Source of the DNA: a virus
Lineage: Duplodnaviria; Heunggongvirae; Uroviricota; Caudoviricetes
Virus record (IMG/VR): IMGVR_UViG_2563366852_000005
Direction: 5' to 3' (one strand)
Length of the DNA: 29,375 bases
Part shown: piece after piece, positions 678 through 10,387 of the stretch
Position numbering within the stretch: position 1 is the first letter of the stretch
Layout: every line of letters starts with the position of its first letter
Notes under the pieces: model-generated
Databases searched by the model: none
Seen by the model: only the letters and a program-made list of their open reading frames with translations
Told to the model about the DNA's origin: nothing
Made by a program: the position numbers and the translations under genes

Positions 678-758
678 CGCGAGCACCTCTTCCGGTTGTG
701 TTGATGGTGCCATTTTAGTTAATTTACCCTTATAAAACAAACAGATAAATAAAACACA

Positions 759-1922
759 TCACTCATCATCTTCTGTTTCGTACTCCACATCAGAAAGCCT
801 GACCTCAAGCTCTAAGGACGTCGTGAAGCCGCTATTATTCAGAAAATGTGTCACCTTAGTGATTGTCCAGTCCTGCTCGTCTATGACGCGCTTAAAGCCT
901 GACACTTTAACCGGTGTTTCCGTGTAAATATCTGCCCGACCGGTAGCCAGGCTGATGGAGAACTCCGCCACACCCCGTTGCAGTTTATCCCACTTCGCCT
1001 GGGCGGCACGCATGGCCTGTGCTTTCGTGGCATATACCGTGGTCAGGGCAAAAACGTTGTCAGCCTCACCGGCCATGTATTCACCTTCGCGCGCTTCCGG
1101 TACTTTTGGCGCTTTCTTCTGCGTGACTGGTTTCGCTTTCGGGTGCTCCAGTGCGCGCAGGTGTTTCTCTTTCTTTTTGCGTTTCAGTTTTACCTTCTGC
1201 TTTTGCGGCTTCGGGTCTTTGGTGTGTAACCACTTTGCCGTTACGCCGGTATAGGCTCCACGGTCAGCAATCGCAAAATGATGGCGGTCGCCGTCGCTGC
1301 GGGTTATGGTAATCTGCGGGATTTTCTTACCGCTGGCCGTCACCCCCTGCCCCGCCTTAAGAAATAACAGTTTTCCCATTTTTACCGACACCTCACCGCC
1401 GTTGCGTTCAGCAAGGCGGGTCAGGAATTTTGCATCAGACTCCTGCGACTGGTCGATGTGCGGGATTTTAATTCCGGCCAGTGACGGAGCAACACTGGCT
1501 TCCAGCTTGTTACGGGAGGCTATCGCCTCAACAATCGTACCGAGCGTGGTGTCATGCCAGGAGCCTTCCCGGCGGGAATTGAGCGTCCCGCGAAAATCTG
1601 CACTCCGGGCGCGGATGGTGACCACATCCGGCGCGCCCCGGTGTTCTACCTCATCAACGGTAAATTTCCCTTTGCATACCAGGGCAAAACCTTTCCAGCC
1701 GATATACACCGTCAGGACAGCGCCACGAATCGGCAGCTCGACCTGCCCGTCGGCATCGTTCAGTTCAATATCAAGCTGGTCAGCCTCAAAGCCCCGGTTA
1801 TCCGTCAGAGTCATGCTCATCAGACGGTCGCTGATATTGCCGGAAATATCCCTGCTGTCGAGCATCAGCATGTAATCCGGCGTCAGCGTACTGCCTGCAT
1901 CAAATGTCAGCGCATCCAGCAT
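759..1922 (-). CDS. D: Tail protein D (P2 gpD)
   Basis: 387 aa ORF in the conserved P2 position downstream of U; N-terminus MLDALTFDAGSTLTPDYMLMLDSRDISG as in P2 gpD. Confidence 0.9.
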   Translation of the reverse strand: MLDALTFDAGSTLTPDYMLMLDSRDISGNISDRLMSMTLTDNRGFEADQLDIELNDADGQVELPIRGAVLTVYIGWKGFALVCKGKFTVDEVEHRGAPDVVTIRARSADFRGTLNSRREGSWHDTTLGTIVEAIASRNKLEASVAPSLAGIKIPHIDQSQESDAKFLTRLAERNGGEVSVKMGKLLFLKAGQGVTASGKKIPQITITRSDGDRHHFAIADRGAYTGVTAKWLHTKDPKPQKQKVKLKRKKKEKHLRALEHPKAKPVTQKKAPKVPEAREGEYMAGEADNVFALTTVYATKAQAMRAAQAKWDKLQRGVAEFSISLATGRADIYTETPVKVSGFKRVIDEQDWTITKVTHFLNNSGFTTSLELEVRLSDVEYETEDDE

Positions 1923-7061: not shown

Positions 7062-7193
7062 CCGTTTAACTCCGTGGTTAATGGGTGAGTGGTATTTTCA
7101 GTTGTGCCGGAGATGTCAGGCTATTTGTCCCGGTTGGCTAATCAACAGCACAACCACCGGTAAAGAAAAGGCGGGCAATCAGCCCGCCTGTGT
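7062..7193 (-). promoter_or_regulatory. G-FI intergenic region: expected Ogr-dependent late promoter for the FI-FII-E-T-U-D operon; empty Z/fun cargo slot
   Basis: Position relative to P2 operon structure; only 132 bp and no ORF. Confidence 0.5.
7162..7190 (-). terminator. Intrinsic terminator after G (stem GGCGGGC/GCCCGCC, loop, then TTTTCTTT on the minus strand)
   Basis: 7-bp GC stem at 7170..7188 immediately downstream of the G stop, followed by a T-tract on the transcribed strand. Confidence 0.7.
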
Positions 7194-7772
7194 TTATTGC
7201 GGTAGTTCCGGCCATTCAATATCCGGGGCATTTTCCGGCTGAACGCGATTCAGTAGCACACGGTATTTTTTCCAGTGTGTCAGGCTTAACTTTTCTTCCT
7301 CGGTAGCCATATCTAAATCGACAGCATCCTGCAGCGTGGCAATAATTTCACCTGCATATGCAATCAGCTCTTTCTTCTGAGAGTCAGCCGCTCTGACAAG
7401 CGCATCACGCTCTGCATTCTCATCATTCACCCACGCATTTCCGTTCCATTTCTGATAATCCCCATCCGGGGAAATGGCTGTCACGTCTGGAGGTAATGCG
7501 CCAAGTTCAGAAATATAAATGGCTGCTCCCGTTTTCGTTTCATAGACAGTCTTTCCGCGATGGTCTTCCATCAGTTCCCATTTCATTTCATCTGCATTGA
7601 AAACGGCTGCATAACCAGCAGGAATATCAGGCGGTGCAATATCTGTACTGTTTGCAGGCAGACCTGTATGCGGCGGAATATATGCGTCACTTTCACCAAT
7701 AAATTCATTGGTTCCATCAAGTAAATTGAAAACGCGGATAGTTTGTGCTTCTGCACTCATTCTGAAAGCCAT
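7194..7772 (-). CDS. G: Tail fibre assembly protein (P2 gpG / Tfa family)
   Basis: 192 aa directly downstream of the tail fibre gene with stop/start overlap; Tfa-like N-terminus. Confidence 0.85.
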
Positions 7773-10387
7773 TATGCAAGCCTCACAATATAGTTAAATG
7801 CGATGTTTTTGACGGTGTTTTCGGTATTACCCGTAGCATTTACCGTGATGGTGTGTCCGTGCGCACCCAAGGCCACAGTGTGTGCATGGGCACCAATACC
7901 TACAGTGTGGTTATGCTGACCAATATCCACCGTATGGGCGTGCGCTCCGGCTGTGCTGGACACCTGATTGTTTCCTGAAGCCTGTACACGCTGTTTTCCA
8001 CCGACAGAGTCGCCGCCATAAACACCACCGACAGTGTGCGTATGATTGCCCGTATTGTTCGTTGATTTTGTGCCGTGGTTAAACGTACTGACCGTCTTCG
8101 TGCCGTAATCAAATGAACTGGTCGTTTTCGTTCCCAAATCCGTATTTGACGCACTGGCGCTGTGAGTATGCGATTTAATCCCGTCCTGCTCCTGTGACAA
8201 TACGGCTCGCCCACTGGCGGGTTTGCCCTTGATTGTCCAGCCGCGCATATCTGGAATAACACCTGAAGGATAGGCTATAGCCAGTTTCGGATATGCAGCC
8301 TTATCGAACGTCTGCCCCTGCATAATTGCATAGCCCGCAGGTGGTGTATCTGATGGCCACGGCAACGGAACACCTGGCGGAAACGCTTCGATATTTGCCG
8401 ACCCGTCAAATTTTACGCCGTTAATTGTCCTTGCCGTTTTCAGCTTTGTCGCTGTAGCAGCATTGCCGGACAGTTCGCCTGAAAGACCACCGCTGAATGT
8501 CTGTTTCGCTGCCCATGTCTGGGCTTCGTCGATAATTGGAACACGTCTTGTGGTGATCGTGCGGTTTCCCGGATTTCCTGAAATACGCACCATAAAAAAG
8601 CGGTAGTTCGCTTTACTTACAGTGCTGCGCCATACATGCATTGAGCGCCCCGTACCGGAATCATCACTCGGACCCACTGCGATGTTTATCAGGTTGCCAT
8701 CAATGACGCCCCAGTCCATACCGTCGGGAATGTTGGTCATGTTATCAAGCCGAACGGTTATCAGACTGCCCGGCACAAAGTCGTAGGTCTGCCAGTCCAG
8801 GCTGGTGAGCTTTGCCACAGCACCGCCGATACCCAGATTCAGGGGAAGTGAATACGAGGTGTAGACTTCCCGCCATTCGCTCCACGAGCTGCCGGTATAG
8901 ACGCGCTCAAACGTGCGACCTTTAAGGGTTGCACCTGTTCCGGCAGTTGTATAACGCTGCCATACGTTAACACCATCAAAGCGCCTCAACACTTCCAGAA
9001 TACCGAGGACTGTCACGCCGTTTCCGTCCAGTATTGGACCATTGGTCGCTTTACCTGTAACGCTGTAAATACCTGGTGAGGTTACATCATTCAAATCACC
9101 GTCGTAATAACGGCTTTCTGACTGGTAGCCCACTCTTGACCACGGCTCCCACTGTGGGTTCTCTGCATCCCACGAGGCCGAAAGACAGCGAACATAAACA
9201 TTTCCACGACGGGTCGTGTAACGCTGCGTTCGCGAGTAACCACCACCTTCAAGAACTTCAAGGAGTCCCTGACCATAACTTCCTTCTTCCGGATAGTTGC
9301 GGTCAAATGAAGCGATTGAGCCACTACTGTTTCGCCATAAACCAAGATGCTCTGCGCCTCCGAGCGTGTTCAGGTCAATGGTTGTGCTCAGGGGGCGTGT
9401 TGCAGACTGAATCTGACGCCAGTAACTCCACGGACCGTCTGAGCCATTCCAGGTGCCAGAAAGGTTGCGCATATAAACATTGCCTGTTCTGGTGGTATAA
9501 CGCTGCATTCCTGCAAAATTACCGCCATTGAATACCTCAAGCACACCGACTGCACCGTCTTCAGGGAAATTTTTCTCCAGTGTTGCGTTGGTGGATGTTG
9601 CTTTAGACCAGATACCTGAATAAGCCTTAACAGGACCAAATGTATTCAGATCAGCATCAAGCGGCATTTCGCCATTGTTTTTCATAAACGTCAGGCTGGT
9701 AACGCCAACATTTTCCAGAAAAGCTGATTTATCCTGGATATCTGCACCATTCTGATTTTTCGCCAGACGTGAATTTGCGTTGTCATTTGCTGCCTTGACC
9801 GCTTTTGGCGTTGCCGCCAATGACTCACTGGTGCTGTTTGTTGCACTGCTTAACTGAGTAAAACCTTTTTCTGTCAGTGTGGCGTCAGGATGGCGGCGGG
9901 ACTGCTCATGCTCTGCGATTTTGTCATCGACGTAATCCTGCGTCGCCATCACTGTGCTGGCATCAATACTCAGCTCAACGGACGCCACGTTACTGACAAT
10001 AATGACCATGCGGCAGGTCTGCGCACGTCCGGAGCCTTCAGCCAGTTCAGGCTTATAGCTTTCTGCCATGTTAGCGACCGCAATCAGTGTTCCGGCATCG
10101 TCATACAGACCAAGCTCACGCATCCAGAAGCCGCCCACTTCGGGCGGTACAACCAGTTCAGCCACGATATAGTTTTTATTCTTATTATCCACGCTGACTT
10201 TATTCAGAGCGTGACGCCAGACCTCATGCACCAGTTTCGTCTGACCGGCATCCGGCACCGGCAATTTGCCATTACCGTCACCCACGGCCATTGCAGACAG
10301 GTTTACTTTTTTCCCGCCGGGGACAGTGGCGGCTGCCAGCTTTGCGGCTCCGGCAGTAGTGATAACGGTTTTAAATTTCGTGCTCAT
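7772..10387 (-). CDS. H: Tail fibre protein H, long variant with repetitive His-rich C-terminal receptor-binding region
   Basis: 871 aa; conserved N-terminus [24 protein letters not shown]; C-terminus with five G-x-H-x-H-T-V repeats and terminal ...[11 protein letters not shown]. Confidence 0.9.
7841..8160 (-). repeat. In-frame tandem coding repeats in the H C-terminus (GxHxHTV units x5 and GTK-T/S-rich units x3)
   Basis: Repeated nucleotide units visible around 7840..8060 and 8050..8160; translate to [31 protein letters not shown] and DYGTKT..., NHGTKS... Confidence 0.7.

Follow-up and report, generated by a model that had tools for sequence, protein, structure and literature searches.

The C-terminal ~235 residues of the tail fibre gene H described here very probably form a receptor-binding tip of the T4 gp37/lambda Stf type, carried on a P2-family shaft and acquired as a single cassette together with the chaperone gene G. 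The window, by which we mean the whole 29,375-nt stretch of viral DNA analysed (IMG/VR record IMGVR_UViG_2563366852_000005), keeps the P2 gene order I-H-G-terminator-FI, with H lying between I and the chaperone gene, intact P2 late genes around it (I, FI, FII, E and T), and the terminator-like hairpin at the place where P2 has its annotated terminator (Table 1). The exact H protein is already public as WP_016249383.1 (Escherichia marmotae), though databases label it merely "phage tail protein". Phage P24A7b has the same H and G architecture, as do 149 of 5426 complete E. coli genomes.

Table 1. Features of the H-G region (positions are those of the window; HxH motifs are numbered from the N-terminus of H)
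Feature	H residues	Positions	Strand	Basis or remark
Terminator-like hairpin and T-run		7169-7189	minus	5 nt past G stop; late operon end
Gene G, lambda-Tfa-type tail fibre assembly chaperone, 192 aa		7194-7772	minus	PF02413, E 3.6e-40
Gene H, tail fibre, 871 aa	1-871	7772-10387	minus	ORF list; Pfam PF12571, PF03406, PF07484; stop codon 7772-7774
P2-H-type N-terminus (baseplate-attachment domain and Phage_fiber_2 repeat)	1-207	9767-10387	minus	BLASTP, Pfam
Shaft	208-650	8438-9766	minus	Common to other Peduovirus H, absent from P2 itself
Three tandem ~90-aa shaft repeats	237-512	8852-9679	minus	Repeat alignment
Conserved linker holding the recombination joint	636-673	8369-8482	minus	DNA breakpoint near 8436
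Collar domain (T4 gp37 domain D10)	669-738	8174-8383	minus	PF07484; aligns to 2XGF
Descending needle-stem strand	739-784	8036-8173	minus	HxH 1 8162-8170; HxH 2 8036-8044
GTKxxxSF(D/N)(Y/H) repeats	within 739-784		minus	Descending strand
Distal tip subdomain, hypervariable, predicted receptor-contacting	785-815	7943-8035	minus	T4 gp37 alignment
Ascending stem strand	816-851	7835-7942	minus	Four HxH, 9-aa period
HxH of the ascending strand		7934-7942, 7907-7915, 7880-7888, 7853-7861	minus	
Conserved C-terminus	852-871	7775-7834	minus	

A preliminary description of this DNA had called H a mosaic fibre with a P2-like N-terminus and a swapped receptor-binding end. Both parts of that statement stand, as do the protein lengths it gave (871 aa for H, 669 aa for P2 H and 192 aa for G), but the mosaic has three layers rather than two. 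The first layer, residues 1-207, is 85% identical to residues 1-207 of P2 H (BLASTP); PF12571 covers residues 1-151 (E 6.6e-58) and PF03406 residues 170-211. Past residue 207, BLASTP gave no alignment of H to P2 H, and a motif scan of the P2 H protein found zero HxH, so the His-rich C-terminus is, as had been claimed, different from that of P2 and not a colinear version of it. The second layer is the shaft. Over H nt 1-1952 the gene has 89-96% nucleotide identity to vB_EcoM-569R9, P24B2, NC_070906 and others, the Megablast matches to other Peduoviruses end at H nt 1952-1967, and sliding identity to 569R9 drops from at least 91% to ~40% between 8528 and 8378. On these sequence comparisons we place the joint of the third layer, the T4/lambda-type cassette, at residues ~651-673, everything upstream of it being common to other Peduoviruses. 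In those phages H residues 1-673 are present at 90-96% identity but are followed by different C-termini, which are paired with P2-G-type chaperones; the tip and the chaperone thus swap together.

The shaft repeats themselves gave zero Pfam or PDB sequence matches at E values up to 10. AlphaFold2 run on the three-repeat alignment reached a pLDDT of 57, and Foldseek with the resulting model returned nothing significant; of the 50 matches listed, the R1 pyocin fibre 6CL5 had the top TM score (TM 0.47, E 4.8), a weak lead.

For the third layer, phmmer against PDB chains matched H residues 653-871 to residues 16-242 of 2XGF (T4 gp37 785-1026) with an E value of 2.7e-76. Because the HxH motifs are aligned within this match, they are not a chance pattern. 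H is 59% identical to T4 gp37 over residues 636-871 (~235 aa), where the homology begins at residue 636, and 60% identical to lambda Stf (orf-314), where it begins at residue 658. The preliminary description had likened the HxH units to metal-coordinating motifs in other phage fibre tips, and the likeness proves to be true homology. The phage tail collar domain PF07484 precedes the needle (residues 672-719, E 7.2e-10, 39.1 bits vs a cut-off of 24), and a PF03335 match at residues 735-748 (E 0.0044) falls below the curated cut-off. At the other end, H shares its last 13 residues exactly with T4 gp37, lambda Stf and P24A7b H, with two substitutions earlier in residues 852-871. A comparison with Mu-type tips had also been suggested, and its outcome was negative: Mu S matches only H residues 167-233, that is the N-proximal Phage_fiber_2 repeat, and phmmer against PDB chains found no significant match between Mu S and the C-terminus of H. 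We therefore rejected a tip of the Mu S/P1 S type (PDB 5YVQ).

An AlphaFold2 monomer of the tip, built from an 82-sequence alignment, was poor (pLDDT 57, pTM 0.31). Foldseek with this model gave 2XGF as its sole significant match (E 5.7e-15, TM 0.30, rmsd 40 Å), which we read as driven by sequence and do not count as independent structural evidence. The same model contains a long beta-hairpin (residues 773-786 and 808-821, on either side of a loop at 787-807) that fits a down-and-back topology, a feature to which we give no weight.

Five GxHxHTV repeats had been reported in the C-terminus. The His motifs are real, but there are six HxH (H740/742, H782/784, H816/818, H825/827, H834/836 and H843/845), of which only four are tandem, and the exact GxHxHTV form occurs four times (residues 781-787, 815-821, 824-830 and 833-839), with a variant GAHGHTI at 842-848. 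The remaining motif, SHTHSA at 8162-8170, lies two bases past 8160, where the region described earlier had ended. A strict period of 9 aa or 27 nt applies to the last four HxH only; the H782 motif lies 34 residues upstream of this array, from which it is set apart by a 31-aa non-repetitive segment. An alignment of 82 distinct related tips shows invariant histidines in HxH 1, 2, 5 and 6 as well as an invariant H827, and H816, H818 and H825 are conserved in at least 90%.

The preliminary description had also considered the repeats prone to slippage and variable between isolates. On that account they would be a contingency repeat whose copy number changes from isolate to isolate and alters host range, which we regard as highly improbable. 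HxH number does differ in the wider family, ranging from 5 to 8 among 106 complete tips, T4 having seven and lambda Stf eight. T4 host range is also reported to have been expanded via duplications of a small fibre-adhesin domain (Tetart et al. 1996, cited in PMC3157838). Against this, the repeat of H exists at the protein level only. The four 27-nt units have 13-18 of 27 nt in common (48-67% identity), Tandem Repeats Finder (TRF) on the DNA reports a 27-nt period with just 2.2 copies at 78% match, and exact direct repeats in 7775-8170 reach no more than 10 nt, which 38 of 300 codon shuffles match or surpass. Additionally, 75 of the 82 distinct related tips keep the 9-9-9 spacing of the HxH, differences in length lie in the non-repetitive tip segment, and full-length E. 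coli matches, among those listed, are 2616 or 2619 nt. With units that are not near-identical and a spacing kept by most close relatives, slippage at the DNA level is largely refuted.

Variation is concentrated in the tip subdomain. Conservation across the 82 distinct related tips is 90% or more in the stem and collar and mostly 3-40% at residues 785-812. Close relatives carry 43 distinct tip segments of 30-38 aa that fall into ~12 unrelated classes, and in the comparison with P24A7b the tip segment has 56% nucleotide identity vs 91-97% in its flanks. In the phmmer alignment this subdomain corresponds to T4 gp37 932-965. The T4 needle is lined with seven Fe ions, has an essential H929/H931 pair, and binds LPS and OmpC through its tip subdomain, residues 932-959 (PMC6957217). 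By analogy, the HxH repeats of H would be a structural core, and the receptor would be contacted by the 31 non-repetitive residues that separate HxH 2 from HxH 3. The P2 fibre recognises K-12 LPS (PMC11338833). It is a reasonable inference that the receptor specificity of H is unlike that of P2, because H is a mosaic with a T4/lambda-type tip and a lambda-Tfa-type G. More tentatively, and with somewhat less than even confidence, we suggest that the 31-residue tip class of H (xVGGxYGGDSxGGKQRVQxSGxNQxSSxAGA) specifies a receptor unlike those of T4, lambda Stf and P2, and that a single exchange of 30-38 aa resets host range. This class is found at more than 90% identity in P2-like and Mu-like Escherichia prophages.

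The preliminary description had taken G for a Tfa, which holds in a more specific form: G is of the lambda Tfa type rather than the P2 G type. Along its whole length it shares 65% identity with lambda Tfa, and its identity to T4 gp38 is 29%; against P2 G its identity is 16% in the N-domain and 44-46% in the C-domain. The N-domain is 82% identical to that of the Tfa of a Mu-like prophage with the same tip and 71% identical to that of lambda Tfa. G thus matches the modular pattern of Tfa (Caudo_TAP) proteins, in which a variable N-domain is specific to the fibre and the C-domain is conserved, and its domain identities agree with the model described for these proteins (PMC9608196).

A chaperone of this type could itself be the adhesin, with G staying on the tip in the virion and making the main receptor contact in place of the H tip subdomain. 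Mature Ur-lambda and Mu phage are reported to contain their chaperones, Mu Tfa is said to aid receptor recognition (PMC9608196), and G has the 65% identity to lambda Tfa. We nevertheless consider this unlikely, given that T4 gp38 is absent from the virion and that LPS and OmpC are bound by purified gp37 needle on its own (PMC6957217, PMC9608196). In addition, relative to P24A7b the H tip has only ~56% nucleotide identity but G has 97%, as expected if H carries the specificity.

The reading of H as a tip-bearing fibre and G as its chaperone was also weighed against decay, in which both genes would be relics of a degenerating prophage and the fibre would not work. The sequence does come from a bacterial genome (Escherichia marmotae/KTE159), and some E. 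coli copies are annotated as a split "phage tail protein (x2)". This is very unlikely to be the explanation here. The H and G ORFs are intact and translationally coupled, the G ATG overlapping the H stop by one nucleotide (TAATG), and they lie among the intact late genes listed above. Moreover, P24A7b, deposited as a complete phage genome, matches 92% of the window's first 25,000 bases at 95% identity.

Based on homology with the T4 crystal structure, we propose a needle built of three H chains, each of which would run from the collar (residues ~669-738) into the descending strand (739-784, HxH 1 and 2), form the tip subdomain (residues ~785-815), and return via the ascending strand (816-851, HxH 3-6) to end near the collar. 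Every HxH would contribute two histidines per chain, giving six ligands per trimer around one metal, Fe2+ in T4, placed on the three-fold axis; H is predicted to have six such sites, compared with seven in T4 and eight HxH in lambda Stf. With this metal-holding geometry, the His repeats would serve as a structural staple and not as the determinant of specificity, which would reside in the Gly-rich 31-residue tip subdomain. G is expected to fold and trimerise the fibre from the C-terminus of H, its N-domain recognising the tip type and its conserved C-domain driving oligomerisation. The T4 fibre also requires the general chaperone gp57A, and to our knowledge lambda encodes no gp57A. Functional Stf fibres are carried by Ur-lambda (PMC11338833).

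A different role for the histidines has been considered. Fibre-bound iron might mimic siderophore-iron and dock on iron-uptake receptors, an idea ("Ferrojan" or "Trojan horse") that has been proposed in the literature for HxH-bearing fibres (PMC11705849) and for which H offers six predicted HxH sites. Yet in the 2010 crystal structure of the T4 tip the metal sites reportedly lie on the trimer axis, the known receptors of homologous tips are OmpC and LPS (PMC6957217, PMC11338833), and no feature in the window ties the fibre to iron uptake; we give this explanation almost no credence. Since the His repeats are the conserved core of a known tip acquired with its matching chaperone, we favour an ordinary tail-fibre module swap.

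The result identifies the fibre tip of a protein with a generic annotation, assigning the His boxes to the scaffold and residues ~785-815 to the segment to be studied or swapped for host range. It also shows one tip and chaperone cassette to be in circulation among P2-like, Mu-like, lambdoid and T4 enterobacterial phages. If the tentative suggestion regarding the 31-residue class is true, this class and the slightly shortened six-site needle would together be a natural minimal scaffold on which exchange of a 30-38-aa cassette resets host range across three phage families, and P2/P4 delivery particles could be retargeted with it directly. In practical terms the value is modest, and no new biological principle is involved.

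Compared with T4 gp37 and gp38, H and G have the same layout of collar, needle and tip, HxH on both strands and a chaperone gene directly downstream, on a different carrier, the P2-type shaft rather than the T4 long tail fibre. The HxH of the descending and ascending strands number 2+4 in H, 3+4 in T4 and 3+5 in lambda Stf, in each case flanking a non-repetitive tip segment. The T4 H915/H917 site has no counterpart in H, where a lone histidine, H771, aligns, and the stem geometry must therefore differ somewhat from that of T4. The stem strands of H are shorter by 4-5 residues (740 to 782, 42 vs 46; 816 to 843, 27 vs 32), which fits one fewer metal site. The alignments disagree on this stretch, MAFFT pairing H782 with T4 H915 and HMMER pairing it with H929; we adopted the HMMER pairing, in which the VGG tip motif and G964/G814 stay in register, and the exact site-by-site match of the HxH on these alignments is uncertain. 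Within the tip, the scaffold residues G792, G796 and G797 are common to T4, as is an aromatic (Y790 for W936), whereas T4 S947/Y949 and the OmpC patch K945/Y953 (PMC6957217) appear absent or changed, a residue mapping that is uncertain because the alignment of the tip subdomain is gapped.

Lambda Stf and Tfa resemble H and G in tip (60%) and chaperone (65%) and have the same one-nucleotide stop/start overlap. The tip region of Stf is ~42 residues longer, and Stf is an accessory side fibre of a siphovirus that targets OmpC (PMC11338833), whereas the H tip belongs to the only fibre of a myovirus. The C-terminus of T4 g37 and g38 reportedly come from a lambda-type phage (PMC3157838). P24A7b (LR595887/NC_049390) is a P2-like Peduovirus with the same three-part fibre; its H has 874 aa and is 76.5% identical over the full length, and its G has 192 aa and is 97% identical. 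It differs in the shaft (51-81% nucleotide identity) and in the class of its tip subdomain, TIYRGNANTNGETGKTGFDNPSFNGTSGAAGN. P2 itself resembles the window in gene order, not in the receptor-binding end: its H is shorter and HxH-free, and the N-domain of its G is unrelated (16%). Mu-like E. coli prophages (P0003; loci L009 and L010) have a 327-aa fibre whose tip belongs to the same tip-subdomain class and has 91% identity over 204 aa, followed by a 191-aa Tfa. That fibre has a very short shaft and belongs to a Mu-type phage (Mu Gp48, transposase, Mor, GemA), and the C-domain of its Tfa is merely 50% identical to that of G.

Finally, the engineered P2:S16-gp37 and lambda-P2 chimeras join a P2 or lambda N-terminal part to a foreign receptor-binding C-terminus (PMC9594776, PMC11338833), an arrangement also seen in H; S16 gp37 relies on a separate gp38 adhesin (PMC9608196). 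Natural fibres with a P2 shaft, a gp37-type tip and the cognate Tfa may be templates for P2/P4 particles, for which artificial fusions have so far been used (PMC9594776). Whereas the P2:S16-gp37 and lambda-P2 fibres are laboratory constructs, the window holds a natural chimera with its cognate chaperone.

Peduovirus P24A7b (LR595887 / NC_049390) matched the first 25,000 bases of the window at 95% identity over 92% of the length, and its fibre (874 aa) and chaperone (192 aa) have the architecture seen here for the tail fibre H and its chaperone G. Proteins identical to H and G are already public, the former as WP_016249383.1 / EOW59536.1 (Escherichia marmotae / Escherichia sp. KTE159), annotated as a "phage tail-collar fiber domain-containing protein". 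In 5426 complete E. coli genomes, matches spanning 80% or more of H were detected in 149, ST131 strains among them, with the best full-length copy at 95% protein identity. The Pfam domains of H, namely the PF12571 N-terminal domain (E 6.6e-58), the Phage_fiber_2 repeat and a Phage Tail Collar domain at aa 672-719, point to a P2-family tail fibre, while G is a Caudo_TAP fibre-assembly protein (E 3.6e-40).

Features of the fibre region in the window
Feature	Position	Strand	Description
H	7772..10387	-	ORF of 871 aa
G	7194..7772	-	ORF of 192 aa
Terminator-like hairpin	7169-7189	-	within the G-FI intergenic region
Three tandem ~90-aa shaft repeats	8852-9679 (H aa 237-512)	-	pairwise identity 33-40%

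P2 H aligned with H over aa 1-207 only, at 85% identity, bearing out the earlier claim of a P2-like N-terminus joined to a different C-terminus. Megablast against 50,697 phage records returned none covering 80% of H. Peduoviruses vB_EcoM-569R9, P24B2 and NC_070906 and the Yersinia vB_YpM phages matched nt 1-1952/1967 of H at 86-96% identity, where the match ended; at the protein level, aa 1-673 were common to these phages at 90-96% identity. Past aa 673 the C-termini of these phages differ from that of H (their fibres have 911 and 919 aa), and the chaperone that follows is of the P2-G type, with 175-178 aa. Sliding-window identity to 569R9 fell from at least 91% to ~40% between 8528 and 8378, which placed the joint near 8436, inside a conserved linker of H. 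H is therefore a three-layered protein: residues 1-207 form a P2-like end for attachment, residues 208-650 a shaft that some Peduoviruses also have, and residues ~651-871 a T4/lambda-type tip, which was acquired together with its chaperone. G aligned with lambda Tfa along its entire length at 65% identity; identity to T4 gp38 was 29%, whereas resemblance to P2 G was confined to the last ~70 residues (46% identity). A Mu S-type tip, raised as a comparison in the preliminary description, was rejected: Mu S (PDB 5YVQ) matched only the Phage_fiber_2 repeat.

The stop codon of H and the start codon of G form a TAATG overlap (7770-7776). Lambda orf-314 and orf-194 share one nucleotide in this manner (21973), but in P2 a 3-nt gap lies between H and G; the junction, too, seems to have moved with the tip and G (together, the cassette). 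ORFs of 66 aa (7882-8082, plus strand) and 120 aa (7900-8262, minus strand) overlap the tip in other frames and are most likely by-products of repetitive, GC-rich coding sequence; they were not counted as genes. The intergenic region separating G from the sheath gene FI is just 132 nt (7062-7193), and no cargo gene was found there; P2 has fun(Z) at this position, and 23CRST038, P24A7b, 569R9 and NC_070906 have hypothetical genes there.

The shaft repeats, whose invariant positions include DLN...G.LEV...QRYTT...G...R...W..W, had no match in Pfam and PDB sequence searches. They may be knob-like shaft domains; an AlphaFold2 model showed a weak, non-significant likeness to the R1 pyocin fibre 6CL5 (TM 0.47, E 4.8), though this model and that of the tip were both of low confidence and were given zero weight. 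We also noted a second mosaic patch (9129-9578, minus strand), with only 72-77% identity to NC_070906 and to the H of E. coli 23CRST038, which is 95-100% identical elsewhere. The patch spans repeats 1-2, and recombination therefore shuffles shaft segments too.

Mu-like prophages of E. coli encode a 327-aa fibre whose tip is 91% identical to that of H over 204 aa. This fibre is followed by a 191-aa Tfa and has Mu Gp48, Mu transposase, Mor and GemA among its neighbours. The N-domain of G (aa 1-120) was 82% identical to this Tfa, 71% to lambda Tfa and 16% to P2 G, while the C-domain was moderately conserved throughout (50%, 56% and 44%, respectively). The chaperone N-domain thus tracks the tip type, as described for modular Tfa proteins, whose N-domain binds the fibre and varies while the conserved C-domain drives oligomerisation (PMC9608196). 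Since the C-terminus of T4 g37, together with g38, reportedly derives from a lambda-type temperate phage (PMC3157838), the cassette in the window is its usual temperate-phage form. E. coli GCA_027278265.1 carries the 327-aa fibre and Tfa pair twice, both times in a Mu-like context. At each locus the pair precedes another large ORF (615-672 aa) and a DUF4376 protein; these may represent an alternative set of fibre genes. At one locus (L009), baseplate J directly adjoins the Mu transposase gene, which suggests a deleted prophage. That P2 and unrelated phages exchange tail-fibre genes horizontally has been known since 1992 (Haggard-Ljungquist et al., as cited in PMC13100340), and artificial P2:gp37 (PMC9594776) and lambda:P2 (PMC11338833) chimeras have been built. 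We found no paper on this particular natural combination of P2-family shaft, T4/lambda-type tip and Tfa, which is unsurprising and of a familiar type.

HxH repeats absent from P2 H (669 aa) were located in H essentially as first described, but there are six (first His at aa 740, 782, 816, 825, 834 and 843) rather than five GxHxHTV repeats: four are exact, one is GAHGHTI, and a sixth, SHTHSA (nt 8162-8170), lies slightly past the end of the interval originally delimited. The tandem layout is limited to the last four, with a strict 9-residue period. The last 13 residues of H are the same in T4 gp37, lambda Stf and P24A7b H.

Searching a protein collection with the tip gave 2059 homologues (E <=1e-10) from Escherichia, Shigella, Salmonella, Citrobacter, Serratia, Hafnia and Pluralibacter. 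Among the 82 distinct tips in the best 120 of these, identity to the window was at least 90% at most collar and stem positions and mostly 3-40% at aa 785-812, and the last four HxH motifs were spaced 9-9-9 in 75. The sole varying spacer in this set, HxH 2 to HxH 3 (33-41 residues), occurred in 43 different versions of 30-38 aa, which fall into about 12 classes unrelated to one another; the window's class is also present on Mu-like fibres. At the DNA level, the P24A7b cassette was 91-97% identical except at 8078-7929 (56%), which covers this tip segment. With variation concentrated in the HxH 2-3 spacer, the His boxes are a constant scaffold, and the segment between them would be the exchangeable specificity element. 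The repeats had been proposed to be slippage-prone and to vary between isolates. Of 27 nt per unit, the four units have only 13-18 in common, exact direct repeats in 7775-8170 are at most 10 nt long (a length reached by 38 of 300 codon shuffles), and TRF reported 2.2 copies at 78% match. This poor unit identity, with the 9-9-9 spacing fixed among relatives, argues against slippage. HxH counts in the wider family range from 5 to 8, reflecting insertions adjoining the tip segment; T4 and lambda have 14-residue spacings on each strand. Tetart et al. reportedly described laboratory duplications in T4 gp37 in 1996, so rare rearrangements are possible.

How the tip would work was deduced from T4 structure and mutagenesis, mapped by HMMER alignment. 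In T4 gp37 D11, a tip subdomain (932-959) is inserted in the stem (882-931 and 960-1009), seven iron ions lie along the needle, and the subdomain binds LPS and OmpC, with H929/H931 essential (PMC6957217). In H, aa 739-784 would form the descending strand with HxH 1 and 2, aa 785-815 the counterpart of the tip subdomain plus a short return, and aa 816-851 the ascending strand with HxH 3-6. One HxH from each of three chains would supply six ligands for one metal ion on the axis, which predicts six sites. H lacks an equivalent of the T4 site H915/H917, with H771 alone aligning there, and the residues between outer HxH motifs number 42 in H versus 46 in T4 and 27 versus 32, both strands being 4-5 shorter; this is consistent with a needle about one rung shorter than that of T4. 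Scaffold residues essential by T4 mutagenesis are kept (T4/H: G938/G792, G942-G943/G796-G797, G964/G814 and an aromatic at W936/Y790), whereas the glucose-cavity residues S947 and Y949 and the OmpC patch K945 and Y953 are absent or changed. On this tentative mapping, with a gapped alignment, the tip subdomain of H is therefore expected to have the T4 fold with a different specificity.
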